From Oligoflexia bacterium (lineage in GTDB: Bacteria > Bdellovibrionota_C > UBA2361 > JBGSMV01), in NCBI GenBank assembly GCA_019694515.1, contig JAIBBU010000007.1, positions 6,573 through 70,572 of the forward strand: DNA of 64,000 nucleotides, written 5' to 3'. Position numbers and translations under genes: made by a program. Shown piece by piece: positions 22,825-40,048 of this stretch. The notes under the pieces are model-generated. The model worked only from the letters and a program-made list of their open reading frames with translations, had not been told where the DNA came from and did not search any database. The stretch's first letter is position 1; the number at the start of each line of letters is the position of its first letter.

Positions 22825-23311
22825 AAAACTCGTCCTGCATTTGGGATCAGACGATTGCCAGCTCGAGCATCACCGGTCGACCGATCTACGGTCTCCCGAT
22901 TAGTACGCAGCATTGTTCCCGAAACTCGGGCGGCTGCAGAGCAATGTTCCAAGGCTTGAAAAATCATCGAGCTAAGCGAAATAGAAATCTGATCCGGTTA
23001 AGGTTAAAAAGAAAAAACTCTCAAAGAAAAATCTATGCAATTCTACTCATTAGAATTTTTCGCCGTAGGTTTCTTGGAAGTACCGTCTGGACCGGCGGGG
23101 CCGAACCAGACATCAAGTGTACTCGTCCCAAGATTCCAGGGCTATCCGGACACCAATTGGCTGTCCGGAACCTGTGGAGTATACCTATAGATATAGGAGG
23201 ACAGAAGGGCCATCAAGTTTTCAGAAATAAAAGACGTTAATCCATTGAAATAACTTGCGGGAATCCTATCTGCCCCGAAAAACTAACGATTTACCCTATC
23301 GGTGTTCTATT

Positions 23312-23632
23312 ATGAGACTAGTTGTTTTACGTGGTTCAGGCCAGGGAAAGGCTTTTCAGTTGGAGCAGGGTAGCAATCTGATCGGTCGCTGGGATCCCGA
23401 CAGCGGGGCCTTCCCCGAGATCGACCTGGAGGAGGAAGACCCGGAAGCTAAGGTCTCCCGCAAACATGCGGTGATCGAATGTACGGGTGAAATGGTTACG
23501 ATTGAGGACCTGGGGAGCAGAAATGGTACCTATCTAAATCGCGACCAAAAGCTCGAACCCGGTAGGCAGTACGACCTGAAAGTTGGCGACGAGCTGATTG
23601 TAGGCAAGACTTTCTTGCGGTTCGAAAATTAG
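23312..23632 (+). CDS. FHA-domain protein (single domain, about 106 aa)
   Basis: MRLVVLRGSGQGKAFQLEQGSNLIGR...VSRKHAVIECTGEMVTIEDLGSRNGTYLN is a canonical FHA domain. The ORF could start at 23255 instead. Confidence 0.7.
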   Translation: MRLVVLRGSGQGKAFQLEQGSNLIGRWDPDSGAFPEIDLEEEDPEAKVSRKHAVIECTGEMVTIEDLGSRNGTYLNRDQKLEPGRQYDLKVGDELIVGKTFLRFEN

Positions 23633-23651
23633 CTTCCGGTCTGCAGCTATT

Positions 23652-24014
23652 TTATTTTAATAGCGTTTCGATGTGATTGACCAAAACCGCAGGTTTGCAC
23701 GGTTTGGTGAGCACTAAATTACATCCTGCATCCAGGGCTTCCTGATGAACCTCGGGGTCATCGAGCGCCGTGAACGCAACTATCGGCAGCTTCAGCCCTT
23801 TGGCTCTAATTTGCCGGACGCACTCTTGCCCATTCATCTTAGGCATCATCAGGTCGATCAGAATTATATCGGGACCGACTTCCTCAACGCACTGCAATGC
23901 TGAAATGCCGTCGGTGCGACGGACAACCTCAAAACCTTTATCTTCGAAAAGATAGTCAACGATATCGAGCGCCGTGAGGTCGTCGTCAATAATTAGTATT
24001 TTTTTATTATCCAT
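23652..24014 (-). CDS. CheY-like single-domain response regulator (receiver only)
   Basis: ILIIDDD...DIILIDLMMPKMNG...LTKP. The phospho-acceptor Asp and Lys are conserved. 120 aa. Confidence 0.85.
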   Translation of the reverse strand: MDNKKILIIDDDLTALDIVDYLFEDKGFEVVRRTDGISALQCVEEVGPDIILIDLMMPKMNGQECVRQIRAKGLKLPIVAFTALDDPEVHQEALDAGCNLVLTKPCKPAVLVNHIETLLK

Positions 24015-24406
24015 CTACGCCGATACGTTTTGCTAAAATTTAGACCACTTCTACTTATATCCTATTACTTGATGCGCGGGCGCGTGGGAAAGATCCAGCG
24101 GTAAATTCAGTAACGGCGCGAAACGAAGTTTTAACCACGAGCGCGCTTGGTATAAGCAAAATCCTGTTTAAATCTACAGATTTCCGGATCTTATTAACAA
24201 CACCGTGTCTCCTATATACAGTACAGCCCAAATGGGCTTTTTAGATACTAAGCTCCGGTTGCCAGGAATTGAGTGCTGAAGTCGTTGTCGAAGTAAGATT
24301 GCGGCGCCCCGCCTCATTCCGCGCTATGAGTCCTGCGGTTGTAACATAATCCGGGAAGCGCTTTAGTATCGCATTCCGAACTGTATTTTCAGTTTGGTCA
24401 TAAAAC

Positions 24407-25747
24407 ATGTTCGCACTTGAAATAGATTTTCGCGACGGCATCTCCGATCCGGAGACCATCTTCGTGCGCCGCCCGCACGCGCTGGTTGGCGCTTCCGACT
24501 ACGCGCATGTCGTGGTGGAGGACATGAAAGAGTTGGGATATCAAATCCGCTTAACTCGCGACCTGGGGCGCAGCTTTCGTTGTCGTTTAGTCTCAAACGA
24601 ACCGGTCGAGGCCGCGGCTCATCTTGAAGGGCTGTATGAGGGAGAGGCGCTGCTGGATACGGGCAGCGTAAAGCTCCGCATCACAGCGCTTGATACAGAT
24701 TTGGTGTTCAAGGACGGCGAAACCCCGGATAGTGCAGGCGCAAGGATTCTACGGCAGGCTTGTGCTGCAGGTAGTCCAACCTTTCCAGCATTGGTGGTGG
24801 CCGGAAGCTTTCCGCTCGTGATCTCTTTTTCCGAAGAGCAGCCGCTTTACCTCGGGCGCTCCAAGCAGTGCGTAGTGCGCTTTGATTCCTCCGAGATCTC
24901 CGCGCGGCATGCGCGGATGGGATTTGAAAACGGTAAATTCTGGATCGAGGATTTGGGTTCCACGAACGGGACCTTTGTAAATCAGCAGCAGGTATCCGGA
25001 AGAGTTAATGTCGAACCTGGAGCTCCGGTAACTCTGGGACGTGAGATCTCAATTGCGGGTGTGACTTCTCCGCAGGAGCTGGCGCAAGCGCTGCACGCAG
25101 AGGAGCCGCGCATCGATCGCAATGCGCCGCTGGCGAATAGATTTCCCGTGTTGATTTCCACCTCCGAAGTCGCCCGGCCAGCTCGAATGGTTTTAAGTGC
25201 CGGCGCAACGGTGACGATCGGGCGGGACCCATCCAGCGATATGTGGATTGGGGCTCCGCATGTATCGCGCAAGCACTGTGCGGTGTTCTTGCATGATAAC
25301 GGTACACTATCGGTCACCGACCACAGTACCAATGGGACCGCCTATACAGGCGGGGTCCTAAAACGTGGCAGCTCGATTCAGGTACGGGAAAGGCCGGAAA
25401 TCCTCGATTTGGGCAGCGGAGTGACGGTGGCGGTCTGTTTAAACGAGGAACAGGAGCGCGTCTTTATCGCTGCGCATGGCTCGCCGCTGGCTTTTGGCGA
25501 ACCTGAAAGAGACCTGCCCAAGCGGGAAAGCCCTGTCATCGCTCATGGCACCCGCTTTTCCGGAGAAGATACGATCTGGAATACCCAACAGATGCGGGCG
25601 CATATGGAGCGCAGCTTCGTGGTATGGCTGCTGGAATACTTCAGATCGTGCGGGTTTTTCGGACGGGCCGCTTTGTTTTGTCTCGTGTTCGCCTTTATAA
25701 TGGTTTTGGCTTTTATTGTATTGATTTTGGGACGCGTTTTCCTGTAG
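24407..25747 (+). CDS. Multi-FHA-domain protein with C-terminal TM anchor; candidate SctD (YscD/CdsD-like inner-ring component)
   Basis: Three FHA-like segments, e.g. LYLGRSKQCVVRF...ARHARMGFENGKFWIEDLGSTNGTFVN and VTIGRDPSSDMWIG...SRKHCAVFLHDNGTLSVTDHSTNGTAY. C-terminal hydrophobic helix FCLVFAFIMVLAFIVLILG. Sits at the head of the sctJ operon. Confidence 0.7.
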   Translation: MFALEIDFRDGISDPETIFVRRPHALVGASDYAHVVVEDMKELGYQIRLTRDLGRSFRCRLVSNEPVEAAAHLEGLYEGEALLDTGSVKLRITALDTDLVFKDGETPDSAGARILRQACAAGSPTFPALVVAGSFPLVISFSEEQPLYLGRSKQCVVRFDSSEISARHARMGFENGKFWIEDLGSTNGTFVNQQQVSGRVNVEPGAPVTLGREISIAGVTSPQELAQALHAEEPRIDRNAPLANRFPVLISTSEVARPARMVLSAGATVTIGRDPSSDMWIGAPHVSRKHCAVFLHDNGTLSVTDHSTNGTAYTGGVLKRGSSIQVRERPEILDLGSGVTVAVCLNEEQERVFIAAHGSPLAFGEPERDLPKRESPVIAHGTRFSGEDTIWNTQQMRAHMERSFVVWLLEYFRSCGFFGRAALFCLVFAFIMVLAFIVLILGRVFL

Positions 25748-25823
25748 CAGAAGGCTGCGCGCGGACCGCGTGAATTTTTGGTTTTTGCAGTTTTTGGTTT
25801 TCAGATAGTAACGGGAGAGAGTC

Positions 25824-26855
25824 ATGGCAACTGACAGTACTGAATTGACCTTCGTTCGATGCCCTTCATGCCGCAGCTTAGTGCCGGCTTCTCAGACACG
25901 CTGCCGGATGTGCGGTGCATCGCTGGATGCTGGAACCCAGCAGGGTGGCGATGATGCCGCGCGGAAGTCGGGACGAGTCAAGCAGCGTACTATGTCGCAG
26001 CCGCAAAGCGACTTAAATTCGGCTGCCGATCAGCTGCGCAAAGAGCATAAGAGCTCCGGTATGGAAGAGCTTCCGGATAGTGGCGATGAGATCTCAGTCG
26101 ATGATCCGTTGAGCGGATATGTCGAAGAAGTCGAGAGCGCCGAAACGGATGCGCCGGCTGAAGCCCCGGCGGCAAAGAGCGCTAATGGTGGCGGGTATGC
26201 ATCGCATGAACGGCCTAAAGAGGCTTCGCCGATGCCTCCCAAGCCGCGCGATGAGCAGAAACCGAAAGTATTCGCTGAGAGCGGTAGAAAGCAGAGTGGC
26301 GGTTTGTCCTTCAATAAGGAGCGATCCGAGCCGCCGGTTGCACGCAATTTGGCTTCCGCTGCCGAGTCTGACGATGCTTGGAGCAGTGTCAATGAAGAAT
26401 TACCGGTTGAAGAACCGGTGCGTGAGCCGCGTGCTTCACGTGAAAAGGAACAGCGCCACACACCGCCGTCAGCTGCGCCAGCTCGCGAAGGAGCTAAGAA
26501 GGCTGAGCAGCGCCCCGGCCGGCTCTTTGGGTGGCTGGTAAGCTATGCCAATCCGGATGGAAGCGCCTTAGAGCTGCGCGAAGGGAAGTTCTTCGTCACA
26601 GCCGGCAGCCTCAAGCCTAGTGATATGATCATTCAAGACCCTAGCATTTCGACTCCGCACGCTTTGGTCAACATCAGCGCGGCGCAGGGATTCGCAGTGC
26701 AGGACCTGATGAGCGATCGCGGTGTCTGGATTAGGCGTCGTGAAGGCGACACCTACCAGCGTGAGGAGAGTCTGCAGGTTAAGCATGGCGACTGGCTGCG
26801 GTTTGGTGATGTTGAGTACCTGGTGACTTTGATCGCACACGTCGGCGCGAAGTAA
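25824..26855 (+). CDS. Zinc-ribbon plus disordered linker plus C-terminal FHA-domain protein
   Basis: N-terminal CPSCRSLV...CRMCG zinc ribbon. Long Ala/Glu/Pro/Ser-rich low-complexity region. C-terminal FHA (GKFFVTAGS...SISTPHALVNISAAQGFAVQDLMSDRGVWI). Confidence 0.7.
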   Translation: MATDSTELTFVRCPSCRSLVPASQTRCRMCGASLDAGTQQGGDDAARKSGRVKQRTMSQPQSDLNSAADQLRKEHKSSGMEELPDSGDEISVDDPLSGYVEEVESAETDAPAEAPAAKSANGGGYASHERPKEASPMPPKPRDEQKPKVFAESGRKQSGGLSFNKERSEPPVARNLASAAESDDAWSSVNEELPVEEPVREPRASREKEQRHTPPSAAPAREGAKKAEQRPGRLFGWLVSYANPDGSALELREGKFFVTAGSLKPSDMIIQDPSISTPHALVNISAAQGFAVQDLMSDRGVWIRRREGDTYQREESLQVKHGDWLRFGDVEYLVTLIAHVGAK

Positions 26856-26978: not shown

Positions 26979-27854
26979 ATGGGTTATCGAACTAGGTTAA
27001 GCGCATTCAAGGCACTTCGCATCGGCGTCTTAGTCGGCGTTTTGCTGCTGATTTCGGGATGCAATACCTCCGTAGTGCTGAATGACCTCTCGCAGTCAGA
27101 AGCCTTGGAAGTCATAGCGGCGCTCAATGCCACCGGCATTAGCGCCTATTCAGCGGAAGATTCGGGCGCCCGGGGAAAATTTAGTGTGACCGTTGATTCA
27201 GCCCGCTATTCCGAAGCGGTCGCAATCATCAATGACAAACGGCTGCCGCGCCGCAGCGAATTTCGCAAGATGATTGAACCCAAAGGGCTGCTGCCGAATT
27301 CCCGCGAGCTTGAAGCGTTGCGGGTGGATAAGGCGCGCGCGATCGAACTTAAAGAACTTCTCGAGAATCATCCTGATATTGCCTCTGCCGAAGTCACGGT
27401 TCGTCAAAAATTTCTGGCTGAGGATGAAGCCCCCTCAGTTGGAGCTATGGTCGTAACGCGGTCCGGCTCGACGCTATCCACTGATCAGCTGCGCACGATG
27501 ATCCAAAGTTTCGTGCCCGGTATTAATCCTGAGCGGGTGGTCGTGGTTGCACACGCGCTGGATTCTTCAGGCAATGTGTTCAAGGCCGAAGGAATCCTGA
27601 ATGATAATCAGAAACTTATCCATGTGCCGCTAGCGGGCTTCCTGCTGGGTTGGCGTGTGGCTGAAGCCGATCAGAATGGATTGGCGATTACGATTGTGGC
27701 CTTCGTCCTGGCGGTAGGAATTCTAGGGGCAATTTTGGGTTACTCCTACGGTTCATTCAAACGTTCGGAAGATGCTTTAAATGATGCACTCCCGGAACCC
27801 GCAATTCGGGCGGGGCGCTTTGAACGACCGGTTAAGACTTTACCGGAGGAATAA
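26979..27854 (+). CDS. sctJ: Type III secretion inner-membrane ring lipoprotein SctJ (YscJ/EscJ/PrgK family)
   Basis: Signal peptide plus LISGC lipobox, then LSQSEALEVIAALNATGISA (compare YscJ [20 protein letters not shown]). About 290 aa with a C-terminal TM. A lipoprotein of this size argues against flagellar FliF. Confidence 0.85.
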   Translation: MGYRTRLSAFKALRIGVLVGVLLLISGCNTSVVLNDLSQSEALEVIAALNATGISAYSAEDSGARGKFSVTVDSARYSEAVAIINDKRLPRRSEFRKMIEPKGLLPNSRELEALRVDKARAIELKELLENHPDIASAEVTVRQKFLAEDEAPSVGAMVVTRSGSTLSTDQLRTMIQSFVPGINPERVVVVAHALDSSGNVFKAEGILNDNQKLIHVPLAGFLLGWRVAEADQNGLAITIVAFVLAVGILGAILGYSYGSFKRSEDALNDALPEPAIRAGRFERPVKTLPEE

Positions 27855-28073
27855 ATGGATTTGCAGCGTTTTCGAGCTCTATCAGAGAAAGATCGCGCCT
27901 TAGTGGCCGTGGCTGTATTAATGGATGGCCGCGATGCGGGTGTGTATTTGGAGAATGATGCTCAGAGCGGTGCGGTGTTAAAGCGGGCGGCGGATGACTT
28001 GGCAGCACAAGAACTCGAGCTGCGAATGACCTACGCTGCTACGCAGTTGCGGGCAGCGCTGAAGGAGGGGTAG
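27855..28073 (+). CDS. Small helical protein of the T3SS operon (function unknown; in the SctK/SctI position)
   Basis: 72 aa. Its ATG starts immediately after the sctJ stop (TAA at 27852-27854, ATG at 27855). Confidence 0.4.
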   Translation: MDLQRFRALSEKDRALVAVAVLMDGRDAGVYLENDAQSGAVLKRAADDLAAQELELRMTYAATQLRAALKEG

Positions 28074-28391
28074 GTGGATAGCCCCGAGCGGCGTGAGGAG
28101 ATTGCGGCATATATCGATAAGGTCAATGCGGAGCTGGCGAAGCGCCGCAAGCGGGTGCTGGAGCTGGAGAAGGAATTAAGTGATTTGCAGATGCAGGTAG
28201 AAGAGGCTGGTACAAAGATCAGAAGAGGGGTGGGGGATGCGGCCGTTGCCGCCGCTTCAGCCAGCTTTATGGCCTCCGTCGGCAAACGCCGTAAATTATT
28301 GGATGAGCAGTTAGGGGAGGCGCGCAGCGATGTACAACGAGCCGAGGATCGGCTTAGGACCGCCACCCAGGAAATGGATCAATTGAATTAG
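28074..28391 (+). CDS. Coiled-coil protein of the T3SS operon (candidate SctL/SctO, FliH/FliJ-like)
   Basis: 105 aa, charged heptad-repeat-rich. GTG start immediately after the upstream TAG, with GGAGGGG upstream. Confidence 0.45.
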   Translation: MDSPERREEIAAYIDKVNAELAKRRKRVLELEKELSDLQMQVEEAGTKIRRGVGDAAVAAASASFMASVGKRRKLLDEQLGEARSDVQRAEDRLRTATQEMDQLN

Positions 28392-28405: not shown

Positions 28406-29434
28406 GTGAAGGCCCAAGCAGGAACGGACAGCGATATTTCAGTGGTACCTTGGGAGCCCGAGAAGACTCTTGAGAAGATGGCGCTGCTGCAGGCCAGGCT
28501 GTCGCGGGGGTTTTTGCGCTCTGACCCTTCGAAATGGTTCCCGGGATTTGCGATGCAGTGGATTCCGCTTACCAGCGCCTTCGGTGTTGAGCTGCAGATA
28601 CGAACTGTCGAGCCGGTGCTGGCCGCACCCCGCGGTTTGAGCGGCTACGTTGGTGCAGTGGACGATGAGCCGATTGCAGTGGGGATGGAAGATCGAGATG
28701 CGCGGCTGTTGACGGCAGCTTTCTGTAGTGGCGCACTGGCGGGAGCTCAGGGGGTCCTGCGGGAATATTTGGCGCGCCGCTTCATAACCAGCATGGCTTT
28801 ATCATGGAGCGGTCCCGAGTCTTCGGTGGTGACCTTTGATCGCAGCATGAATATGTCGCATATGCGCGAGTCGGCAGCGATTCGGATGGAACTCTTGGTC
28901 AATGATCAGGCCTGCAATCTATGGGTCTTGATGGGGAAATTTTTGGTTGAACGTTTGGACGCATTGTGGCGCAAACAGGTGCGTTCCACTGCGCGCCAGG
29001 AGTCCGGTGCAGCGCGCGAACTAGCTCTAGAGGTTACACAGTTAGCTGTGCCGCCTTCGCTTCTAGCGGAGTACATGAAGCCTCGGGCAATCATCGATCT
29101 CGAGACGATCGTCTCAGACCGGGTCTTGCTCCGCGAAGGCGGCAAGCCGCTTTCCTATGCGCGGTTGGTGAACATCGAGGGTCGCTACGGCATCTCCTTG
29201 CTAGACGAGCCGGTAGCCAACCCTAGACTGCCCGACGGTACTACCAGACTAGCTGTCGAGCTGGGGCGCATTGCGGTCGATGGCAATCAATCAGCGGAAT
29301 TTCTTCAGAATGGCGCAATCTGGGAGACCGGTCTGAAACTGGGTCCCGCGGCCAACATGGTAATAAACGATGAAAAGGTCGGCTCTGCCGAGCTGATGAT
29401 CTTTGAGGGGCGCTTTGCGCTGCGGGTAACCTAG
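28406..29434 (+). CDS. sctQ: Type III secretion cytoplasmic-ring protein SctQ (YscQ/FliN/FliM family; C-terminal SpoA domain)
   Basis: The C-terminus LQNGAIWETGLKLGPAANMVINDEKVGSAELMIFEGRFALRVT is a FliN/SpoA-type domain. A second SpoA-like segment lies upstream (VLLREGGKPLSYARLVNIEGRYGISLL). Confidence 0.7.
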   Translation: MKAQAGTDSDISVVPWEPEKTLEKMALLQARLSRGFLRSDPSKWFPGFAMQWIPLTSAFGVELQIRTVEPVLAAPRGLSGYVGAVDDEPIAVGMEDRDARLLTAAFCSGALAGAQGVLREYLARRFITSMALSWSGPESSVVTFDRSMNMSHMRESAAIRMELLVNDQACNLWVLMGKFLVERLDALWRKQVRSTARQESGAARELALEVTQLAVPPSLLAEYMKPRAIIDLETIVSDRVLLREGGKPLSYARLVNIEGRYGISLLDEPVANPRLPDGTTRLAVELGRIAVDGNQSAEFLQNGAIWETGLKLGPAANMVINDEKVGSAELMIFEGRFALRVT

Positions 29435-29526: not shown

Positions 29527-30111
29527 ATGGATGGCTTTCTGCAGTCGCTGCTGGCAATTTTAGTCTTCACCGGCTTTGTTAAGATCTTCACAGCTCTGTG
29601 TATTGCGCGCTACGGTCTGGGCCTCGATCAAGCGGGCTTCGGCATCGTCATCGGAGTTTTGGCTTTGGCCCTCTCGATCTTCGCAGTGGAGCCGCAGCTT
29701 AGGCCCTATGGGGGCTGGAGCATCCTGAATGGTGGTGAAAACCAGAAGGTAGATCTGCCTAGGACCTTTACGCCGTTCTTGGTCAAGCATTCGGATGCGA
29801 AAATTATTTCGGAACTTGAAAAGCTGCGCCCAAATTCCGAAGGGCAAAAGAACGACACACCGGAGTTCTCATTACTGACAGTGAGTTTTTTGCTGAGTGA
29901 GTTGAAATCAGCATTCGAAATTGGGCTGTTACTTCTCATTCCGCTGATCATCATCGATCTTTTAACCTCCAATATTTTAATGGCGCTGGGTATGCAGCAG
30001 CTTTCCCCGGCGTTGGTCTCCCTGCCGATTAAGTTGCTGCTATTCTTAGCGCTGGATGGCTGGACTCTGTTTAGCGAAAAGCTGCTCAATTCATATACGG
30101 GGGCTGGATAA
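29527..30111 (+). CDS. sctR: Type III secretion export-apparatus protein SctR (YscR/FliP family)
   Basis: LIPLIIIDLLTSNILMALGMQQLSPALVSLPIKLLLFLALDGW matches the FliP/YscR signature (...GMMMLSP...PFKLLLFVLVDGW). No cleavable signal peptide, as in non-flagellar SctR. Confidence 0.85.
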   Translation: MDGFLQSLLAILVFTGFVKIFTALCIARYGLGLDQAGFGIVIGVLALALSIFAVEPQLRPYGGWSILNGGENQKVDLPRTFTPFLVKHSDAKIISELEKLRPNSEGQKNDTPEFSLLTVSFLLSELKSAFEIGLLLLIPLIIIDLLTSNILMALGMQQLSPALVSLPIKLLLFLALDGWTLFSEKLLNSYTGAG

Positions 30112-30366
30112 ATGGACGCCGTATTATACAGCATGTTTATTGAGGCTATTCGCGTACTGCTGTTGGTCGGGGTGCCATCGGCGCTGCTGATCGGCTGTGC
30201 AGGGGTATTGGCTGGCGCGTTTCAGAGCGTTACCTCGATTCACGATCCGGCGATTGGCTACACTGCGCGGCTGCTGGCGCTGATTGCGGCGTTGTATTTC
30301 TTGGGCGGATTTTTTTGGGAACGGGTGCGGAACCTGCTTGAGCAGGCACTGCTCGCACAGTCATGA
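30112..30366 (+). CDS. sctS: Type III secretion export-apparatus protein SctS (YscS/FliQ family)
   Basis: 84 aa, two TM. Overall FliQ-like pattern (AIRVLLLVGVPSALLIGCAGVLAGAFQSVTSIHDPAIGY). ATG immediately follows the sctR stop. Confidence 0.8.
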   Translation: MDAVLYSMFIEAIRVLLLVGVPSALLIGCAGVLAGAFQSVTSIHDPAIGYTARLLALIAALYFLGGFFWERVRNLLEQALLAQS

Positions 30367-30980
30367 TCTTAGAAATCTCATTGCTGACGATGCTGCTCGG
30401 CGGCGCCCTGTTGTTCGGAATGTGGCCGGGACTGGTGATGTTAGCGGGGACTTTTGCCTACGCCGCCTCTCAGTACCATCCCGCTGCCGTTGGTCTGGTA
30501 GTCTTAACCTGTGCCGCGGTGACGGCGGTTCCGCTTAGTGCCGCAGTGTGCGGTGCCGCGCTCGAGCGCCATACTTTTGTGCATGTGCGACGTAATGGGC
30601 AGCTGAATGCGCTGGTCCTTGCCACTGCTACAACCGCATTCTTGCAGACAGGGCTGCCGGTTTCCTTTTTCACTGTGATTGAACGTGCGCAATTGCATGG
30701 CAAAGCGCTCGATTATGGGCAGGCTATCGCAGGGATTATCAGCGCCGCACTGTCAGTCGGTTCATTTGCCGCGCTGCTAATCATGGGTGTCGTATTGCTG
30801 GCAGAGGTGCCGCTAGTGATTGCCGGCCGCATCGGAGAATTTAAAGCAGACCATCACATCACACTTTTTCGGCCGCTGCTTGTGGTATTTGTGCTTTCCA
30901 TGGCGATGAACCTCTTGCTGGGCTTGTTTTTCGAGGAGCTCGCACCGTTACGCATTTTGCCGCTGGGGAATCAACCATGA
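30363..30980 (+). CDS. sctT: Type III secretion export-apparatus protein SctT (YscT/FliR family), short form
   Basis: 205-aa polytopic membrane protein in the canonical R-S-T-U position. ATGA overlaps on both sides. Confidence 0.6.
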   Translation: MILEISLLTMLLGGALLFGMWPGLVMLAGTFAYAASQYHPAAVGLVVLTCAAVTAVPLSAAVCGAALERHTFVHVRRNGQLNALVLATATTAFLQTGLPVSFFTVIERAQLHGKALDYGQAIAGIISAALSVGSFAALLIMGVVLLAEVPLVIAGRIGEFKADHHITLFRPLLVVFVLSMAMNLLLGLFFEELAPLRILPLGNQP

Positions 30981-31639
30981 GCGAGAGGACGGAATGGCCG
31001 ACTGCTGCCAAGCTGGGAGAACTAAGGGAGCGCGGTTTAGTGCCGGTCAGCAGGCTGGCGCTTTGGTCTGGCGCGTTAATCGGCTGTGTTATTGCAGTCT
31101 TTGTTCTAGGCAGCACCTGGAATTTCCCGCAGCGCTGGCTGGAAATTGGTGCGGCGACCCAAGCAGATTCTCCGAATCTAATGGCCGAGCTAGCGGCGCA
31201 TCAGGGCGAGATAGTTAAACTGTTATGTCTGCCGGCTTTGGGAGCAGCTCTCTTGGTAATCCTTGCGGGGGTAGTTCAAACCCGCTTTCTTTTCAGGCCT
31301 GCCACGCTCGCGCCTCAGGGTGAGCGGTTGTGGAACCCAGCAGCAGCAAGCTTTGCAAGGCCCATTGCCCGCCCCCTATCGGCGGTGCTCTGGCTGGTGC
31401 TTGGAATTTTTTGTGGATTCCTGCTTTTTAGTTCGCAGTCGGCGCTGCTCTTAGGACTGCTAAATCAGAGCGTTGCTCCGGGGATTGCCCGGCTGACCGA
31501 CATGCTGAAGAGCTATGCCTTGATCGCCGCAGCGGCTGCTTTGGCAGGGGCTATTCTTGGTTGGATTGCGGCACGCCTCATTTTTATGCTGAGACATCGC
31601 ATGACTCGCCGTGAGGTGCAAAGCGAGGTTGGTGAGTAA
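30977..31639 (+). CDS. sctU: Type III secretion SctU (YscU/FlhB family), membrane domain only; lacks the C-terminal autocleaving (NPTH) domain
   Basis: The N-terminus RTEWPTAAKLGELRERGLVPVSRLA matches the FlhB/YscU N-terminus (KTEAPTPKRL...G.VPKS.EL). Four TM segments. The ORF ends at RMTRREVQSEVGE, equivalent to the MSKQEVKDE linker that normally precedes the cytoplasmic domain. Confidence 0.7.
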   Translation: MSERTEWPTAAKLGELRERGLVPVSRLALWSGALIGCVIAVFVLGSTWNFPQRWLEIGAATQADSPNLMAELAAHQGEIVKLLCLPALGAALLVILAGVVQTRFLFRPATLAPQGERLWNPAAASFARPIARPLSAVLWLVLGIFCGFLLFSSQSALLLGLLNQSVAPGIARLTDMLKSYALIAAAAALAGAILGWIAARLIFMLRHRMTRREVQSEVGE

Positions 31640-31708: not shown

Positions 31709-31966
31709 ATGAAACGCAGCATATTTGACCCCCCTGAAGCCTTCTCGTTGTCCCCGCTACTCGCATTGCTGCCGCAAAAAGGACAGCTCTCAAAATTAGA
31801 GACCCTCTCGGCTTCGCTCTTTGCCCGCTATGAAAGGGTTACAGGGCTGCTGGGCGAGATTGCGGCGGGCTCCTCCCCTGAGTTAGAAACCCGTCTTTCG
31901 CGGGAGCAAAATATGCTGCGCCAGGTCTTGGAGTGGCTCAACATTAAGCCCGAAGGTCAGGCATGA
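31709..31966 (+). CDS. Small hypothetical protein, ATGA-coupled to the TPR chaperone gene (candidate chaperone partner or substrate)
   Basis: 85 aa. Its stop overlaps the next start. No needle (SctF) signature. Confidence 0.4.
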   Translation: MKRSIFDPPEAFSLSPLLALLPQKGQLSKLETLSASLFARYERVTGLLGEIAAGSSPELETRLSREQNMLRQVLEWLNIKPEGQA

Positions 31967-32397
31967 ACCAGGTGCGTCCGCGAGTGCCCTCTGAAATCCT
32001 GAAGCGCGGTTATACCGACGACGAAATCGCGAACATTTACGAATTAGGCCGGCTATTCTTAGAGAATGGCGATCTAAGACGCGGTGAGACGATTATGTTG
32101 GGCTTGCTGGAGATCATGGGCGAATACTCACCGGCCTGGTTAGCCATGAGTTACATTCATTTTGCGAACAAGGCCACCGAGTCGGCAGTAAACGCGGCGC
32201 AAAACGCGTTGAAGCACGATCCCGAAAGTGTCGAAGCCATGTTGGCCCTGGTGGCGGGGCTTCTTACTCTGGGCGACTTTAATAGCGCCGGTACATATCT
32301 GGGTGAGGTGGGTGAGAAATTAGACGCCGGACTTAGCGACGATCCGCGAGTCGTACGTTTCTATAAGGCCATGCTGGCGCGTTATCAAAATCGCTGA
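31963..32397 (+). CDS. TPR-repeat protein, candidate T3SS class II chaperone (SycD/LcrH/CesD-like)
   Basis: 144 aa. Three TPR-like helical hairpins (GDLRRGETIMLGLLEI...; AWLAMSYIHFANKATESAVNAAQNAL; AMLALVAGLLTLGDFNSAGTYL). Size and location are typical of translocator chaperones. Confidence 0.55.
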   Translation: MNQVRPRVPSEILKRGYTDDEIANIYELGRLFLENGDLRRGETIMLGLLEIMGEYSPAWLAMSYIHFANKATESAVNAAQNALKHDPESVEAMLALVAGLLTLGDFNSAGTYLGEVGEKLDAGLSDDPRVVRFYKAMLARYQNR

Positions 32398-33092: not shown

Positions 33093-33443
33093 CTATTTTT
33101 TGGATTTAGGATCGGTCGCTTCTTGCGCGGACATCAATCCGATATCCACGGCCATCTTCACGGCATTGACGACTTTTTGCTTGTTGGCATTAGAGGCCGA
33201 CTTCCCGAACATGTCTTCGGCTTCTTCCTCGATCAGCCGCAGGAGCTCTTCGCGCTCGGCCATAGTCATGGAACGGGTTGCCCCGCGCTTACCAATGCCG
33301 CCGGCCTTGGTTACACCCCCGATGGCGGAGGTTGGCTTGATCCCCTGAACATTCCCGACAGCTTGAGTACCCTCAACCTCGGTCGCCCGGTTGGTGGAGG
33401 TTACCTCACCGACTTTTTTCTTATCGCCGATCTTTTTGGTCAT
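33093..33443 (-). CDS. Small hypothetical protein downstream of the sigma factor (candidate anti-sigma/FlgM-like, speculative)
   Basis: Start at MTKKIGDKKK, with GGAGGA 5 nt upstream. Disordered Gly/Thr-rich N-terminal half and helical C-terminal half (MTMAEREELLRLIEEEAEDMF...). Confidence 0.45.
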   Translation of the reverse strand: MTKKIGDKKKVGEVTSTNRATEVEGTQAVGNVQGIKPTSAIGGVTKAGGIGKRGATRSMTMAEREELLRLIEEEAEDMFGKSASNANKQKVVNAVKMAVDIGLMSAQEATDPKSKK

Positions 33444-33453
33444 CTGTTCCTCC

Positions 33454-34251
33454 TCATCCACTCCGCAGCAAGCGCCGGAACTCTCCCTGTTCAGACTTCT
33501 TTCGTAACTTTATCGCAACTTGCTTCAGTCCGGGACGTACTTTTACGGCTGTGCGCCGTTTGCCCTTCGATAGGCTTTCAAGCAGATGCTCCAAAAGCAC
33601 TTTATGTTCTCTAATTACATTTAATTCGTCCGTTTCCCACTCATCGGCGACGTTACGTAGCGAGCAGCCCTCCCAGTAGATCTTCCAAATCAGGGATTGA
33701 TGAACGGGGTCCATGTCAGCCACCACTTCGATCATCTTCTTGTAATCAAGGGCTTCCTCAGGAGTGGCAGTAGCCAGACCCTGCCGCGCGGCGATCAAGG
33801 TGGCGCCGATCAAGAGTTGTCGGACCGCCATGCGGGTATCGGCTTCATCATTACCTGAGGATTCGTCGCTCAGCGGCAGCTGTCCGGTTCGTAAGTCCGG
33901 ATAGACATTTAATAATTCAGCAGAAATCTCGCGGGTTTGAACTTCCGCGCGTGAACCGCTGCGCCAGCCGCGTGATTTTCGCGCGGCTTCAGTTGAGGCT
34001 TCATGAATGCGCTTGCGCGCATAGCCGCGGAAAGGCACTCCCCGGGAGGGTTGGAAGCGGCGCGCACAGAACAGCAGCGCCTCCATAGCGGCTCCATCCA
34101 GCCCGTCCAGCTGCCAGTCCAAATTCCAGCCCCGGGCGACCGACCGGGCGATACTTTCGGCCCAGCCACGATGCTCCAGCGCCAGCTGATCAGCTTCCTC
34201 AATCGGGAGGGTAGGATGTTGACCCACTGTCGAAGGCGTTTTTGTCTGCAT
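33454..34251 (-). CDS. Sigma-70 family RNA polymerase sigma factor (sigma-28/FliA-like; regions 2 and 4)
   Basis: Region 2: ADQLALEHRGWAESIARSV...DGLDGAAMEALLFCARRFQPSRGVPFRGYARKRIHEA. Region 4: SLIWKIYWEGCSLRNVADEWETDELNVIREHKVLLEHL. Start chosen at MQTKTPS (34251); the ORF extends to 34374. Confidence 0.65.
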   Translation of the reverse strand: MQTKTPSTVGQHPTLPIEEADQLALEHRGWAESIARSVARGWNLDWQLDGLDGAAMEALLFCARRFQPSRGVPFRGYARKRIHEASTEAARKSRGWRSGSRAEVQTREISAELLNVYPDLRTGQLPLSDESSGNDEADTRMAVRQLLIGATLIAARQGLATATPEEALDYKKMIEVVADMDPVHQSLIWKIYWEGCSLRNVADEWETDELNVIREHKVLLEHLLESLSKGKRRTAVKVRPGLKQVAIKLRKKSEQGEFRRLLRSG

Positions 34252-34559
34252 ATCCGCTAAGTTAACTGATGCTGGAAAGCTCTCCTCGGACTCTAGCTTA
34301 TTAGATCCATCTCCGGCCAGCCGGGGAGCGGATAAGTTGCGGAACCGATGTGACTTATCTCCCCGATAATTCAATTAATTCAATAAGTTAACAAAAAACT
34401 GAAGTGCTTATACGTATTCGGCTGATAGGTGGCAAGAGGACCTGTTACGCCCTGCAACGGGAGGTTTGGGCGGACATCTTCTCGACAGTACGTCCTCGCA
34501 ACGTACCGAGTTCGAAAAGGGAAAGCTCACTTCCGGTTGTCAGTTAGGAGATGGAATCA

Positions 34560-35459
34560 ATGCCTGCAAGTAATCTCAAAGTAAAAGATTTCGATCATGC
34601 AGTTGACGCCAAGCGCGCCGTTGTTAAGACAGCGAAGAGCGCGAAGGTCGTTTCGCTTTTCAAAGCTCCCCGCGCCGGCATTCTAACCCAGCGTCAAAAA
34701 GATAATTTAGTTATCACTTACCAGATCAAAGCTCGTAAGATGGCATTTAGCATTTTGCGTCGCTGGCATTCGCGTCTGGATCTGCAGGAAGTTCACAGCA
34801 TCGTAGATCTATCGCTGTGTGAGGCCGTTAAGCATTTCAATCCCACCAAGGGTGCGAGCTTCTTGACCTTCCTGTTCTACCATCTGCGCGGCAATTTGAT
34901 TCGCGCCGTAACAACCGCGGCTAAACTGAATGCAATTCCGCTGAGCGATCTGGATCCGATGCAGCCCGAGGATCAAGATTCTGCGAAGCAATCTGATGGA
35001 CGTGGTATCAGTGCCGCAGAGGTAGCCGACGCGCTTTCGAGCCGCGAAGCACCGCTGCCCGATGAGGTCTTGGCTCGTAAAGAATTGATCAGAGCAAGTT
35101 TGGATGCGTGTCAGAAGCTGGATACGCTGGAGCGTGAAGTCCTGTTCAGAATCTTCTTGCAGGAAGAGCAGCTGCTGGATGTCGCGGCTTCGCTTGGTTA
35201 CAGCCGCTGCCATATCTCACGGGTTAAGCGCCGTGCATTAGAAAGTTTATACGGCGAGGTATGTCGCGCCGTGTATGGCGAGGAAGGAGCATCGATGAAA
35301 CGGCCTGAGGTGGAGGAGTTAGAGGCGGTAGCAACACGCCGTCCAATTCACCGCCGTAAGCCGCGCGCCGGAATGAAGGCCGGCAAGTTCAGAGCGAGTG
35401 CTGGTGCGCTTAAGCGTTCGATGGATAAGGCAAATTCAATTGTAGCAGCCTATTCCTAA
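34560..35459 (+). CDS. Sigma-70 family RNA polymerase sigma factor (sigma-28/FliA-like), divergent from the upstream one
   Basis: Region 2: ITYQIKARKMAFSILRRW...EVHSIVDLSLCEAVKHFNPTKGASFLTFLFYHLRGNLIRAV. Region 4: LDTLEREVLFRIFLQEEQLLDVAASLGYSRCHISRVKRRALESL. AGGAG lies 9 nt before the ATG at 34560. Confidence 0.7.
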   Translation: MPASNLKVKDFDHAVDAKRAVVKTAKSAKVVSLFKAPRAGILTQRQKDNLVITYQIKARKMAFSILRRWHSRLDLQEVHSIVDLSLCEAVKHFNPTKGASFLTFLFYHLRGNLIRAVTTAAKLNAIPLSDLDPMQPEDQDSAKQSDGRGISAAEVADALSSREAPLPDEVLARKELIRASLDACQKLDTLEREVLFRIFLQEEQLLDVAASLGYSRCHISRVKRRALESLYGEVCRAVYGEEGASMKRPEVEELEAVATRRPIHRRKPRAGMKAGKFRASAGALKRSMDKANSIVAAYS

Positions 35460-35722: not shown

Positions 35723-37429
35723 TTGACCGAAACCCGATCAAGCTCCGGCACAATACTGCTGCTACTGGCCTTAGCCTTAGTTCCATTTGTATATCTTTGC
35801 GGCCTTCTGCCGGTCGGTTCGTCCACCGAAGCACGTGAGCTGCTGGTAATTGATACGATCTTGCGTGACCATGCCTGGCTCCTACCGCTCCGCAATGGGC
35901 AGGTGCCATCTAAGCCGCCTCTCTATCACTGGCTAAATGCGATCATAAGTTTCCCGGTCGGCGCTGCTTCTGTATGGCTGGCGCGCCTTCTTTCAGCATT
36001 GCTGGGGGGATTGACCGTGTATTCGACCGCGTTGATTGCAGATGCGGTGGGCGGCAGACGTCCGCGCCTGACACTGCTCAGCGCCGCGCTGCTCTTATCC
36101 ACCTATGGCTTCGTAAAGCTTATGGGCGAAGCCCGCGTGGACATGCTCTTCGCATTCTTGAATACGCTGGCGATGTTCATCGTGCTGCGCCGTTTTGTCC
36201 CTGATTTTACTAGCCGGACGGGGCGCCTCATTCCGCTCGAGGATTTAGATCTTAATCTTTTTTATGCGATCTGCGGCATTAGTGTACTGGCGCGCGGCCC
36301 CCTTGGGATAGTGCTCCCCCTCCTTAGCCTTGGGGCGGTTTTAATCTATACAGCTGGCTTTCGGGCTGCCGTGGTTTACCTATTACGTCCGCGAGCAGGC
36401 TGGTTCATAGCAGCAGCAATCTTTTTGCCGTGGTATTGCAGCGCATTTTTTCGTGGAGGCGATGCCTTCATCAACCGGCAGCTGATCTTTGAGAATATGC
36501 GCCGCTTTTTCGGCGGGGAGCAGGTGAACACTGAAGTTTGGTGGTTCTATCTGCCTTCGTTGCTGCGCACTGCGTTTCCGGTTTCGCTGCTGTTTCTCAT
36601 TTTTCATCGTCGGCTGCGGGATCCGCAGGCCCGCATAATCTCCATCTGGTTCTGGACCGGCTTTCTGTTTTTTTCGCTCGCCTCTGGTAAGCGCCATTCC
36701 TATCTTTTACCTCTTTACCCCGCGTGTGCCGTGTTCGCCGCGCTCTATCTCGAACAGTGGCTTTCACGGCTTTCCGATCGCAGTGGCGAGCGTCTGCGCA
36801 GCATCGCGCGCGCCTTAAATCCCGGAACGATATTCGCAGGGGCGATCTTGGTGTTAGAGGCCTTGCGGGTGTTTGATGAGTTTCACAACCCGGCGGTGCT
36901 GAACGCTAAGATTAGCTTTAATCTGATCTTAGTTCGTACCGAGCTGTTATTGAGTGCCTGCGGAGTTGTGATGCTAGCGTTGTCTATGCTACCAAGCGCG
37001 CGCGCTTATTACCGCAGCCCAGTGCTCTCATGGAGCGCGATTTTGATCGTTTTTTATGCGGCCATCCTGTTGGGGGACGGGTTTAAGAATCAGCTTAAGG
37101 AGTATCCAGCCCAGAGTGCTGCACTGGCTGCAGCCATTCCCGCCAACCAAAAACTAGTGGTTATGAAGAGTGAGTGGGACGAATCCTTTGACGTATTGTT
37201 ATATTATTTGAAACGTCCGGTGATTGTGCACCCTCCGGACGCCCAACCGCTACCGGGCCTGCTGCTGGCTAGCCGTAGCTGGATCGATACCCAGCGTGTG
37301 AAGTGGGTGCAAGCTGGCTGGTCGATGCAGGAAAGGCTCAAGTTAAGCTCCTCATATGATCGGGTGCTCGGGCGGGTTGAGCGCGAGAAAATCCTGTTAG
37401 AGCTTGTGCGATCCGGGCCGCGCCAATAG
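35723..37429 (+). CDS. Glycosyltransferase family 39/83 (ArnT/PMT-like) integral membrane protein
   Basis: The N-terminal loop EARELLVIDTILRDHAWLLPLRNGQVPSKPPLYHWL is typical of undecaprenyl-phosphate-sugar-dependent glycosyltransferases (ArnT-like). 11 or more TM, 568 aa. Confidence 0.7.
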   Translation: MTETRSSSGTILLLLALALVPFVYLCGLLPVGSSTEARELLVIDTILRDHAWLLPLRNGQVPSKPPLYHWLNAIISFPVGAASVWLARLLSALLGGLTVYSTALIADAVGGRRPRLTLLSAALLLSTYGFVKLMGEARVDMLFAFLNTLAMFIVLRRFVPDFTSRTGRLIPLEDLDLNLFYAICGISVLARGPLGIVLPLLSLGAVLIYTAGFRAAVVYLLRPRAGWFIAAAIFLPWYCSAFFRGGDAFINRQLIFENMRRFFGGEQVNTEVWWFYLPSLLRTAFPVSLLFLIFHRRLRDPQARIISIWFWTGFLFFSLASGKRHSYLLPLYPACAVFAALYLEQWLSRLSDRSGERLRSIARALNPGTIFAGAILVLEALRVFDEFHNPAVLNAKISFNLILVRTELLLSACGVVMLALSMLPSARAYYRSPVLSWSAILIVFYAAILLGDGFKNQLKEYPAQSAALAAAIPANQKLVVMKSEWDESFDVLLYYLKRPVIVHPPDAQPLPGLLLASRSWIDTQRVKWVQAGWSMQERLKLSSSYDRVLGRVEREKILLELVRSGPRQ

Positions 37430-37525: not shown

Positions 37526-38005
37526 TCAGCTCCCTGTTCCGATCTCGGCTTCTTTGACGCCGCTCTTGGCTCGAACGTATGAGAGCAGCATGTGTACCAA
37601 TCGCAGTGAATAGATCGCGGCCAAGGCTACGAGGGTAGCCGAAACGGCTAACGGAAACTTATCAAATCCAACCGCGGTGCCGATTGCGGCCGTGATCCAC
37701 ATCAAGGTGGCCGTAGTTATTCCGGATACGCCGCGGGTGCTCTTAAAAATCGCGCCCGCACCTAAGAAGCCGATACCTGGCACGATCTGGGCTGCTATAC
37801 GCCCGGGATCGGCACCAGGGACCGTCTGGGCTACATAACGCGACATCAGTGCGAAGATACATGAACCCATGCAGATCAGGGAAAAGGTCCGCAGGCTCGG
37901 ATCTTTCCCGGCTAGCTCCCGTTCCAGCCCGATAACTGCACCCAGCACGGCGGAGAGAATTAAATGCCTTGATATCTCAGGGTCCCAAAAAAGTGATAAA
38001 TCCAT
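37526..38005 (-). CDS. MgtC/SapB family membrane protein
   Basis: HLILSAVLGAVIGLERE...TFSLICMGSCIF...GIGFLGAGAI...GITTAATLWITAAIG is the MgtC family signature. Confidence 0.8.
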   Translation of the reverse strand: MDLSLFWDPEISRHLILSAVLGAVIGLERELAGKDPSLRTFSLICMGSCIFALMSRYVAQTVPGADPGRIAAQIVPGIGFLGAGAIFKSTRGVSGITTATLMWITAAIGTAVGFDKFPLAVSATLVALAAIYSLRLVHMLLSYVRAKSGVKEAEIGTGS

Positions 38006-38068
38006 CCGTCAAATATAGCTGAGACTGGGTGCTTTAAGAACCTACCTTTTCGCGGGTATATTGCCCGA

Positions 38069-38671
38069 ATGTATCCAAAGCCCGACTTAATATTATTTGC
38101 CTCCACCAACAGTGGGAAGGCCGTTGAAGTTAAACGGATTGGCTCTGCACACGGTATTAAAGTGGTGCTGCCAGCGGAGCTTGAACGCGGTCTTCCGCCA
38201 GAGGTCGCGGAAACCGGCCTAACCTTTCAGGCCAATGCGAAACTTAAGGCTGAGGCTCTTTATGCCTGGAGCGGCGTACCAACCCTGGGGGATGACAGCG
38301 GTCTTGAGGTTGATGCGCTAAATGGAGCACCCGGCATTCATTCGGCACGATATGCCGGTCCGCAAGCTAGCGACGAAGATAACCGCGCAAAATTGCTTTC
38401 CGCACTGCAGGGGGTGAAGCGTCGTACCGCCCGTTACCGCTCGGCACTCTGTCTCAAGCTGAATCAGGAGCAGTTGTTGATGGCCGATGGAGTATTAGAG
38501 GGAGAGATTGCGCACGCGGAGGCGGGGACGGGAGGCTTTGGTTATGATCGACTCTGCATCATCGCAGGAACCGGAATGACCCTAGCGCAACTGAAGGAGC
38601 AGGGCGTCGAGGTCGAAACCCATCGCGTGCAGGCCTTAAGAAAACTCTTTGCGCGGCTCAAGAGCGGATAG
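38069..38671 (+). CDS. rdgB: dITP/XTP pyrophosphatase (RdgB/HAM1 family)
   Basis: ILFASTNSGK...GDDSGLEVDALNGAPGIHSARYAG...FGYD match the HAM1 motifs. 200 aa. Confidence 0.85.
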   Translation: MYPKPDLILFASTNSGKAVEVKRIGSAHGIKVVLPAELERGLPPEVAETGLTFQANAKLKAEALYAWSGVPTLGDDSGLEVDALNGAPGIHSARYAGPQASDEDNRAKLLSALQGVKRRTARYRSALCLKLNQEQLLMADGVLEGEIAHAEAGTGGFGYDRLCIIAGTGMTLAQLKEQGVEVETHRVQALRKLFARLKSG

Positions 38672-39125
38672 GGCGCTGGGCGATTTGTCGTCTAGCTTCA
38701 TACAATGCGATCGAAACGGCATTGCTTAAATTAAGACTCCGAACCCCGTCACAATCGATCGGAATGCGGAGTGCCTGATCCGGGGGGAAGTGCGACATAA
38801 ATTCCTTCCCCAGCCCTTTGGTCTCGCTGCCAAATACCAAGGCATCCTCAGCAAAGAAATCGGCTTCGTAGTAGCAGCGCGTAGCAAATTTGGAGAATAA
38901 CCAGACTCTGCGGCTGGGAGAACGAGCGCTATATTCCTCCCAGGTGGCATGCAGCTGCAGATCGACAAAGGGCCAGTAATCCAGTCCAGCCCGTCTGACG
39001 GTACGCTCGGAGATCTCAAAGGGAGTCTTTCCCACGATATGCAGCGGGGTATAGGTAGCTGCGCAGGTTCGGGCAATAGAGCCGGTATTTTGAGGGATTT
39101 GCGGTTCGACTAGTACGACTTGCAT
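38658..39125 (-). CDS. trmL: tRNA (cytidine/uridine-2'-O)-methyltransferase TrmL (SpoU-TrmH family)
   Basis: MQVVLVEPQIPQNTGSIARTCAAT matches E. coli TrmL ([25 protein letters not shown]). C-terminal LNLSNAVSIALYEA SPOUT motif. Confidence 0.85.
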   Translation of the reverse strand: MQVVLVEPQIPQNTGSIARTCAATYTPLHIVGKTPFEISERTVRRAGLDYWPFVDLQLHATWEEYSARSPSRRVWLFSKFATRCYYEADFFAEDALVFGSETKGLGKEFMSHFPPDQALRIPIDCDGVRSLNLSNAVSIALYEARRQIAQRPIRS

Positions 39126-39253
39126 CTCAATCAACCCATCTTTTCTGAACTGTTACTATCCGAGGATATGCTGAAAGTCTACTCGACCGGAAAAATCCCC
39201 CAACTTTGCATCACCCCCACCCTTTGCTATCATCCCAAGGGCTAATTTAGGAC

Positions 39254-40048
39254 GTGTTTGTTTTAGGGTTGGTTGTGTTAAACGCCGCGATTACAAAAAG
39301 ATTTGAAGTCACTCCAGATCTAATCATCTTTCAGATCAAACCGGATACCGAAGTGCCGGATTTTTCTCCCGGTCAATACGTAGCTCTAGGATTGCCCGGG
39401 TCGGCTGCTCGCCCATCAAACTTTCCGCCGGAAGCCCAGCTGCCTGCGCCTGACAAGATCATCAAGCGCGCTTATTCGATCGGTTCTCCCCCCCAACAAA
39501 AGGAGTACCTGGAGTTTTACATCGCGATTGCTCCTTTGGGTGCTTTAACTTCGCGCCTGGCGATGTTGCATGAGGGAGACCGTCTGTTCATGAATCCTAA
39601 GATTACCGGAACCTTTACGCTGCATGAGGTCCCAGCTGATCATAATTTGATTCTAGTATCGACCGGCACAGGCATCGCCCCGTATATGTCGATGCTTCGC
39701 ACTGAAAGTAGCTGGACACCGCAGCGCCGCATTACTCTGCTGCATGGTGCGCGGCATGCACAGGATCTGGCTTATCGGGAAGAATTATTGGCGCTGGCTG
39801 CACGCGAGCCACGCTTCACCTATCACGCCATCGTAAGTCGTGAAGATCCAGCCTGGCACGGACCGCGCGGCTATGTGCAGAGCTTCTTCAATGACGGCAC
39901 TATCGTGCTCGACCCGCGGGTGGACCATGTCTTTATGTGCGGCAATCCGGGGATGATTGATCAAACTCAGAAGTATCTTGAGGCGCACGGGTATACCGTG
40001 CACTCGAAACGAGTGCCCGGTAATTTGCATTTAGAAAAATACTGGTAG
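39254..40048 (+). CDS. fpr: Ferredoxin/flavodoxin-NADP+ reductase (Fpr-type)
   Basis: RAYSIGS (FAD-binding motif); GTGIAP (NADP-binding motif); C-terminal ...LEKYW aromatic stacking residue. GTG start; an alternative start lies 21 nt downstream. Confidence 0.85.
   Translation: MFVLGLVVLNAAITKRFEVTPDLIIFQIKPDTEVPDFSPGQYVALGLPGSAARPSNFPPEAQLPAPDKIIKRAYSIGSPPQQKEYLEFYIAIAPLGALTSRLAMLHEGDRLFMNPKITGTFTLHEVPADHNLILVSTGTGIAPYMSMLRTESSWTPQRRITLLHGARHAQDLAYREELLALAAREPRFTYHAIVSREDPAWHGPRGYVQSFFNDGTIVLDPRVDHVFMCGNPGMIDQTQKYLEAHGYTVHSKRVPGNLHLEKYW

Follow-up and report, generated by a model that had tools for sequence, protein, structure and literature searches.

The DNA analysed here, a 64-kb stretch from an Oligoflexia bacterium that we call the window, contains a cluster of genes resembling those of type III secretion systems (T3SSs), and within it a short homologue of the export-gate gene sctU/flhB. 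SctU/FlhB is a universally conserved core T3SS protein, and its cytoplasmic C-terminal domain (C-domain) is treated as essential for docking and for the early-to-late switch. Early substrates normally dock on this domain, which also switches export from needle or hook subunits to the substrates that come later. The gene in the window encodes the membrane half of such a protein and stops before the C-domain:

30977-31639, + strand: short SctU/FlhB homologue, 220 amino acids (aa), matching the membrane half of PF01312

The gene lies directly downstream of sctR, sctS and a gene in the position of sctT, whose stop codon overlaps its ATG (ATGA), and it is terminated by TAA. The protein begins MSERTEWPTAAKLGELRERGLVPVS and ends RHRMTRREVQSEVGE. 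It retains the N-terminal TEWPT motif, four transmembrane helices and a loop similar to FlhB_L (QTRFLFRP..LAP..RLWNP), and also keeps the first ~15-20 residues of the linker (HRMTRREVQSEVGE). It terminates within that linker, ~35 residues short of the position at which the autocleavage motif NPTH would be expected.

The Pfam profile PF01312 (Bac_export_2; FlhB/HrpN/YscU/SpaS) matched the protein with an E-value of 2.8e-19 (70 bits versus a cut-off of 24.4), aligning residues 3-218 with profile positions 2-219 of 335; the C-domain takes up positions ~220-335 of this profile. The NCBIfam model for SctU (TIGR01404) aligned over positions 1-221 of 341 and that for FlhB (TIGR00328) over positions 2-225 of 348, with nearly equal scores of ~50 bits where the equivalog cut-offs are ~350. 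A profile of the short SctU family, described below, matched solved chains over residues 8-233 of 383 in FlhB and 3-219 of 342 in Shigella SpaS, with E-values of 1.7e-20 to 2.5e-11. The AlphaFold (AF2) model of the protein, with a mean confidence (pLDDT) of 72, has long helices at 26-47, 76-101, 128-163 and 166-206. Its top neighbour in the PDB is 6s3l_K, the FlhB chain of the Vibrio FliPQR-FlhB complex (TM-scores 0.46/0.51, Foldseek E 0.59), and the neighbours after it have TM-scores of at most 0.23.

A preliminary description of this DNA had called the product a SctU/FlhB homologue with a four-helix N-terminal domain, ending in the linker, and had allowed that the similarity to FlhB and YscU might prove spurious. 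All family matches are confined to the membrane half, and both the alignment to FlhB and the four long helices of the model agree with the proposed N-terminal domain. Spurious similarity is not borne out by the PF01312 match or by the matches to solved FlhB and SpaS chains. The product of 30977-31639 is a member of the SctU/FlhB superfamily through its N-terminal domain, and two features that define a 'switch protein', the NPTH motif and the C-domain, are missing from it. NCBI labels short proteins of this kind (P0001, P0089) 'EscU/YscU/HrcU family type III secretion system export apparatus switch protein'; annotators should be aware that this name sits on a protein with no switch domain.

Word-indexed protein searches gave few relatives of the short SctU, and the family was visible only by exhaustive search. 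Using HMMER with a two-sequence profile against 1.84 billion representative proteins, we obtained 835 matches at E <=1e-3. The C-domain, and NPTH likewise, is missing from 140 of the 150 best representatives, and 132 of these 140 are 195-235 aa in length (median 219). C-domain sequence is present in the other ten, all of which rank low: eight are full-length proteins (344-378 aa) and two are shorter, with part of the domain. Of the short sequences, 122 contain an RM[TS] motif; their C-termini lie a median of 11 residues past it (+10 to +12 in 84 of them), and a short SctU typically ends ~11 residues beyond the conserved HRM(T/S)RxE motif. By comparison, in the four full-length relatives in which the motif was located, NPTH is found ~48 residues past it and is followed by a further 80-90 aa.

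Pairwise identity to the window SctU is only 23-34%, yet in 60 members conservation reaches 90% or more at E6, P8, L16, R17, G20, S25, Q101, F203, R208, M209 and E213, a pattern that points to purifying selection on N-terminus, loop and linker start. We found no paper in the literature describing a natural SctU without its C-domain. Carriers in the related loci are labelled Bdellovibrionota or Bdellovibrionales, or are metagenome-assembled genomes named 'Deltaproteobacteria', 'Pseudomonadota', 'Ca. Dadabacteria' or simply 'bacterium'. Carrier loci were sought with a degenerate DNA pattern for the N-terminal motif, which gave eight loci, six of them true family members, and the taxonomic spread is only a sketch.

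The genomic setting of the gene is conserved as well. Downstream of the short sctU is a pair of small genes:

31709-31966, + strand: conserved 85-aa protein, no known family or fold match
31963-32397, + strand: 144-aa tetratricopeptide repeat (TPR) protein, weakly similar to LcrH/SycD (class II T3SS chaperone-like), matching Pfam TPR_19 and TPR_14

The stop position of the short sctU recurs in eleven distinct syntenic loci, in other assemblies and with a complete gene. The order sctR, sctS, sctT position, short sctU, ~85-aa gene (79-108 aa) and ~144-aa TPR gene is found in L001, L003, L007, L009, L010, L013, L015, L016 and L017, and the pair follows the short sctU in every locus examined (for example, L001 4266-4965, L010 10675-11363, L013 10789-11486 and L017 5715-6421). 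The gap between the short sctU and the next conserved gene is 69 bases in the window and zero in L010 and L016, where the sctU stop overlaps the start of that gene. Housekeeping genes flank the region at window positions 21238-22824 (RNase G, upstream) and 37526-40048 (MgtC, a Ham1-like protein and an NAD-binding oxidoreductase, downstream). These flanks are common to L013, L015, L016 and L017, whose assemblies are only distantly related, indicating an old, vertically inherited chromosomal locus within one lineage rather than a mobile island.

To look for the missing domain, we built a hidden Markov model (HMM) of the C-domain from nine full-length relatives and searched the window together with ~164 kb of related loci, extending up to 10 kb on each side of the gene. 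As positive controls, each full-length relative was recovered with an E-value of 1e-43 to 1e-59, and even a full-length relative without NPTH was recovered at 6e-21. In six-frame translations, the model gave no match below E 1.2 for the window alone and none below E 1.5 for the window plus 16 related loci (227,586 bases). The tetrapeptide NP[TES]H is absent from all six window frames, short SctU included, and the frames downstream of 31639 hold no NPTH-containing continuation. The autocleaving domain is missing from the window, as the preliminary description had proposed from the open reading frame (ORF) itself.

The preliminary description had also held that the two downstream ORFs do not encode the domain, and this too is correct: one product is all-helical and the other a TPR protein, where the C-domain is alpha/beta. 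In the AF2 model of the 85-aa protein (pLDDT 72), an N-terminal extended segment is followed by a helical hairpin. There is no significant fold match in the PDB, with YscE, EscE and a needle/rod chain appearing only at E > 2, and no signal from the C-domain HMM; on these grounds a diverged SctU C-domain in this ORF was ruled out.

Taken together, the observations strongly support the short sctU as an intact and naturally short gene, with a truncation point conserved in a large family. Given the recurrent C-terminus, the conserved gene order and the lack of a C-domain in any frame, frameshift, assembly error and recent pseudogenization are excluded for practical purposes. Of the causes offered at the outset, natural truncation is the one that stands, with 132 representatives and eleven syntenic loci behind it; an assembly error or frameshift is effectively refuted, as there is no hidden C-domain in any frame and, in L010 and L016, the sctU stop overlaps the next conserved gene.

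The short sctU is embedded in a larger cluster, of which the upstream genes are as follows:

23255-23632, + strand: small FHA protein
23652-24014, opposite strand (divergent): single-domain response regulator
24407-25747, + strand: SctD-like protein, 446 aa, two FHA/YscD-cytoplasmic domains and a C-terminal transmembrane segment (FHA E 9e-30; Yop-YscD_cpl E 1.5e-14)
25824-26855, + strand: second FHA-domain protein, 343 aa (Pfam FHA E 3.2e-7)
26979-27854, + strand: SctJ-type inner-membrane ring lipoprotein, 291 aa, lipobox LISGC (YscJ_FliF E 8.4e-13)
27855-28073, + strand: conserved 72-aa protein between sctJ and sctQ, no family match
28074-28391, + strand: 105-aa coiled coil, possibly a SctO/FliJ-like stalk, weak (FliJ E 0.0067 and YscO E 0.037, both below cut-off)
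28406-29434, + strand: SctQ/FliN-like C-ring protein, 342 aa (FliMN_C E 2.4e-8; FliN and SctQ models both weak)
29527-30111, + strand: SctR/FliP export-gate subunit, 194 aa (Pfam FliP E 5.8e-38)
30112-30366, + strand: SctS/FliQ export-gate subunit, 84 aa (Bac_export_3 E 1.7e-9; FliQ and SctS models about equal)
30363-30980, + strand: membrane protein in the SctT/FliR position, 205 aa, assigned by position only, with overlapping codons on both sides

All components score well below curated cut-offs, and flagellar and injectisome models are about equal overall. SctR leans towards the injectisome (NCBIfam EscR/YscR 136 bits versus FliP 107 bits, both below cut-off), as does the SctJ-type lipoprotein, which matched TIGR02544 SctJ with an E-value of 1.9e-19, also below cut-off; FlhA, in turn, outscores SctV. 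The protein in the SctT position has no Pfam or NCBIfam match in the window or in the related loci, which have a 176-224-aa gene in the same place, and it is either extremely diverged or replaced. A 72-76-aa gene occupies the site between sctJ and sctQ in L010, L016 and L017. A FliG_N-like identity for the 72-aa protein found no family support. The 105-aa coiled-coil gene is not among the called genes of those three loci.

The scan of window ORFs, in which all those of 400 aa or more were covered, turned up no secretin, SctN or SctV family. Secretin, needle and translocon families are absent from these ORFs and from the Pfam tables of the related loci, although no search was aimed at small needle-like genes. 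In L010, the cluster is immediately preceded by a SctV gene (FHIPEP, 703 aa); none of the related loci showed SctN. Three FHA proteins and the divergent response regulator head the cluster (window 23255-26855), and a gene between SctV and the SctD-like gene of L010 encodes a 795-aa protein with HEAT repeats and a weak match to protein kinases. The FHA genes, the response regulator and the kinase-like protein hint at control by Ser/Thr phosphorylation.

Downstream of the TPR gene are two sigma factor genes and a further small gene:

33093-33461, - strand: 122-aa protein, overlapping the sigma-70-like gene, no family match
33454-34374, - strand: sigma-70 region-2-like protein, 306 aa, in an operon with the 122-aa gene
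34551-35459, + strand: FliA/SigF-like sigma-70 factor, 302 aa (Sigma70_r2 and r4)

The FliA/SigF-like factor matched the NCBIfam sigma70-ECF superfamily model with 54.7 bits, above cut-off, and FliA_WhiG with an E-value of 1.3e-9. It is syntenic with the cluster, together with the sigma-70-like/122-aa pair, in L010, L013, L015 and L017. The presence of sigma genes and a small protein beside an export cluster suggests that export may be coupled to sigma factor regulation. The 122-aa protein was considered as a FlgM-like candidate, and neither FlgM nor any other family matched it. Elsewhere in the window are two large DUF2298 membrane proteins (49562-51667, + strand; 61546-63963, - strand) and two PMT-like glycosyltransferase-family membrane proteins (35723-37429, + strand; 59589-61541, - strand); synteny with the T3SS-like cluster extends to one of the PMT-like genes in L015 and L017.

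Similar to canonical members of the superfamily (YscU, SpaS, EscU and FlhB), the short SctU has the TE-x-PT motif, four gate-wrapping helices, the helix2-helix3 loop and the (K/R)M(S/T)(K/R)xE start of the linker, and its gene comes right after sctRST. Unlike them, it has no remainder of the CN segment, no NPTH and no globular C-domain, a difference of roughly 125-160 aa. The cluster as a whole shares with injectisomes a SctJ lipoprotein and a SctD with a cytoplasmic FHA-like domain. In comparison with the flagellum, the ring protein here is the 291-aa SctJ-type lipoprotein, and the cluster has no FliF-size MS-ring protein, no FliG/FliM switch, no rod or hook genes and no MotAB. The FlhB, FliQ and FlhA models give scores close to those of the Sct models, so that the system is about equally similar to the flagellar and the injectisome models. 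A natural rearrangement of FlhB within the export gate is also known from Clostridium, where FliR and FlhB are fused (cited in PMC7064499); unlike the short SctU, that fusion keeps the C-domain.

A described counterpart of the cluster is the T3SS* of Myxococcus, a T3SS-like machine without needle or secretin that functions in prey lysis (PMC10433427, PMC12075869, PMC3459982). Compared by description, the Myxococcus xanthus locus (mxan_2434-2464), of the 'Myxo' class of non-flagellar T3SSs defined by Abby and Rocha (2012), likewise has SctD, SctJ, SctQ, SctRSTU and an LcrH-like TPR protein. Both systems come from predatory 'delta' lineages and are deeply diverged from flagellum and injectisome, and neither has secretin, needle or translocon genes nearby, as judged for the window by local gene content only. 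Unlike the described T3SS*, the window cluster carries FliA-like sigma factors and the 85-aa/TPR pair. The T3SS* papers cited here mention SctU with no remark on the protein and no statement of its length. By analogy, the window system resembles the needle-less T3SS* and may be related to it.

Starting from an intact gene, a conserved truncation point, a large family, selection on the retained motifs and the local absence of the domain, all of which are established here, we think it probable that the short SctU serves a T3SS-like exporter without a needle as a structural and gating subunit that has no switch, and that this exporter has no early-to-late substrate hierarchy. The retained half would be the part built into the export gate, with its cytoplasmic N-terminus, four helices around SctRST, a loop across the cytoplasmic mouth of the gate and the first turns of the linker. 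In the FliPQR-FlhB work of Kuhlen et al. (PMC7064499), FlhB_TM is an integral part of the gate, and the helix2-helix3 loop, the most conserved stretch of FlhB, slots in between FliQ subunits and is indispensable to secretion; beneath the gate aperture, the N-terminus sits together with the beginning of FlhB_CN. The parts important to the gate in that study are exactly those kept by the short family, which supports the role of a gating subunit. The autocleaving NPTH domain would have been lost in this lineage rather than relocated. We read the protein as switch-less because a machine without needle, ruler or secretin has no length-controlled early structure to complete, and so would not need a specificity switch. 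Such a machine would probably export a single class of substrate, with SctV, the sorting platform and the TPR chaperone taking over substrate recognition. Its cargo might include the conserved 85-aa protein, or a regulator tied to the adjacent sigma factors.

Several points weigh against this explanation. In studied systems the C-domain is needed for secretion. Small free-standing proteins resembling the FlhB C-domain occur in other bacteria, and the genome could carry a stand-alone gene for the SctU/FlhB C-domain outside the DNA searched. The absence of needle and secretin is a local observation, and SctV and SctN lie outside the window. All members of the short family come from uncultured organisms, and a neighbour-joining tree of N-terminal domains is saturated (mean distances 0.83-0.93) and does not resolve the family into a single clade.

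Some of the same evidence could be read as functional replacement, in which substrate docking or gating falls to the 85-aa and TPR proteins in place of the C-domain; this would coincide in part with the switch-less explanation and not exclude it, and we regard it as unlikely, though with some claim to attention. The pair is always found behind the short sctU, and it is better conserved than sctU itself: the 85-aa protein is 41-59% identical among nine homologues, versus 25-34% for SctU, and has an invariant N-terminal F-S-x-x-P-L-L-A-L-L motif. The overlap of its start with the sctU stop in two loci also suggests translational coupling. Still, a helical hairpin is a fold unrelated to SctU_C, and a hairpin protein next to a TPR protein is more like a substrate and its chaperone. 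The matches to YscE, EscE and needle/rod proteins are all non-significant. The TPR protein itself matched TIGR02552 LcrH_SycD with an E-value of 0.0024, far below the cut-off. The 85-aa protein is a candidate for export, or else for partnership with the TPR protein, and taken as a pair the two may be a small substrate and its chaperone rather than a replacement for the switch.

An improbable alternative is that SctU is split, so that a C-domain encoded by a separate gene elsewhere joins the short protein non-covalently and the switch persists. The free-standing FlhB C-domain-like proteins of other bacteria favour this, as they show that the two halves are separable; they are the reciprocal half of what is seen here, and the window and related loci contain none. 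The window is also only 64 kb of the genome, with SctV and SctN likewise encoded outside it, and canonical SctU is already two associated polypeptides after autocleavage (PMC7064499). Against a split, the 227 kb searched contain no C-domain, with HMM controls at E 1e-43 or better, and no conserved neighbouring gene is predicted to encode an alpha/beta, C-domain-like protein. Moreover, the break is not at the NPTH site; it falls ~35 residues upstream, in the linker, which would leave a separate domain without a tether.

We consider it very unlikely that the whole T3SS-like cluster is a non-functional relic in which loss of the C-domain was one step of decay. Such decay would fit component scores far below the curated equivalog cut-offs and a window without genes for the ATPase, SctV or secretin, but gene order, overlapping codons and intact ORFs persist at ~25-34% identity, and the conserved housekeeping flanks point to long vertical inheritance. 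A like argument rehabilitated the Myxococcus loci, which were later shown to act in predation.

Least credible of all is a sequencing or assembly error, or a decayed pseudogene of a full-length sctU, which has in its favour the short length itself and the precedent of Abby and Rocha, who set aside a 'shorter match for sctU' in Agrobacterium radiobacter K84 chromosome 2 and Burkholderia phytofirmans PsJN chromosome 2 as probably degraded (PMC3459982 Table S2), and against it the recurrence of this length and C-terminus across independent assemblies, in 132 representative clusters, the lack of any C-domain remnant downstream, the closeness of the next conserved gene and the strongly conserved motifs. 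The K84 and PsJN loci have a partial sctU match as here, and one of them also has no secretin; unlike the truncation in those loci, which were judged degraded, the present one is precise and conserved across a large family.

A bolder proposal, which we put forward only tentatively, is that the short SctU is the mark of a third, separate kind of T3SS-derived machine, common among uncultured Oligoflexia/Bdellovibrionota-like lineages and running constitutively without a switch. The 85-aa protein, the TPR chaperone and the sigma/small-protein module might then form a minimal export-coupled device for regulation or predation. If this were so, nature would have run the experiment of assembling a gate and translocating protein without the C-domain of SctU/FlhB, and would have shown that domain to be dispensable for both.

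A large natural family that has only the gate-embedded half of SctU genetically separates the gate role of this protein from its switch role. It suggests that the membrane domain, the loop and the start of the linker suffice to build and operate the gate, and that the C-domain serves ordered secretion. For structural biology, the family offers a minimal SctRSTU gate to study, and evolutionary work could use it to trace the deeply branching T3SS-like systems of predatory lineages that have no needle.

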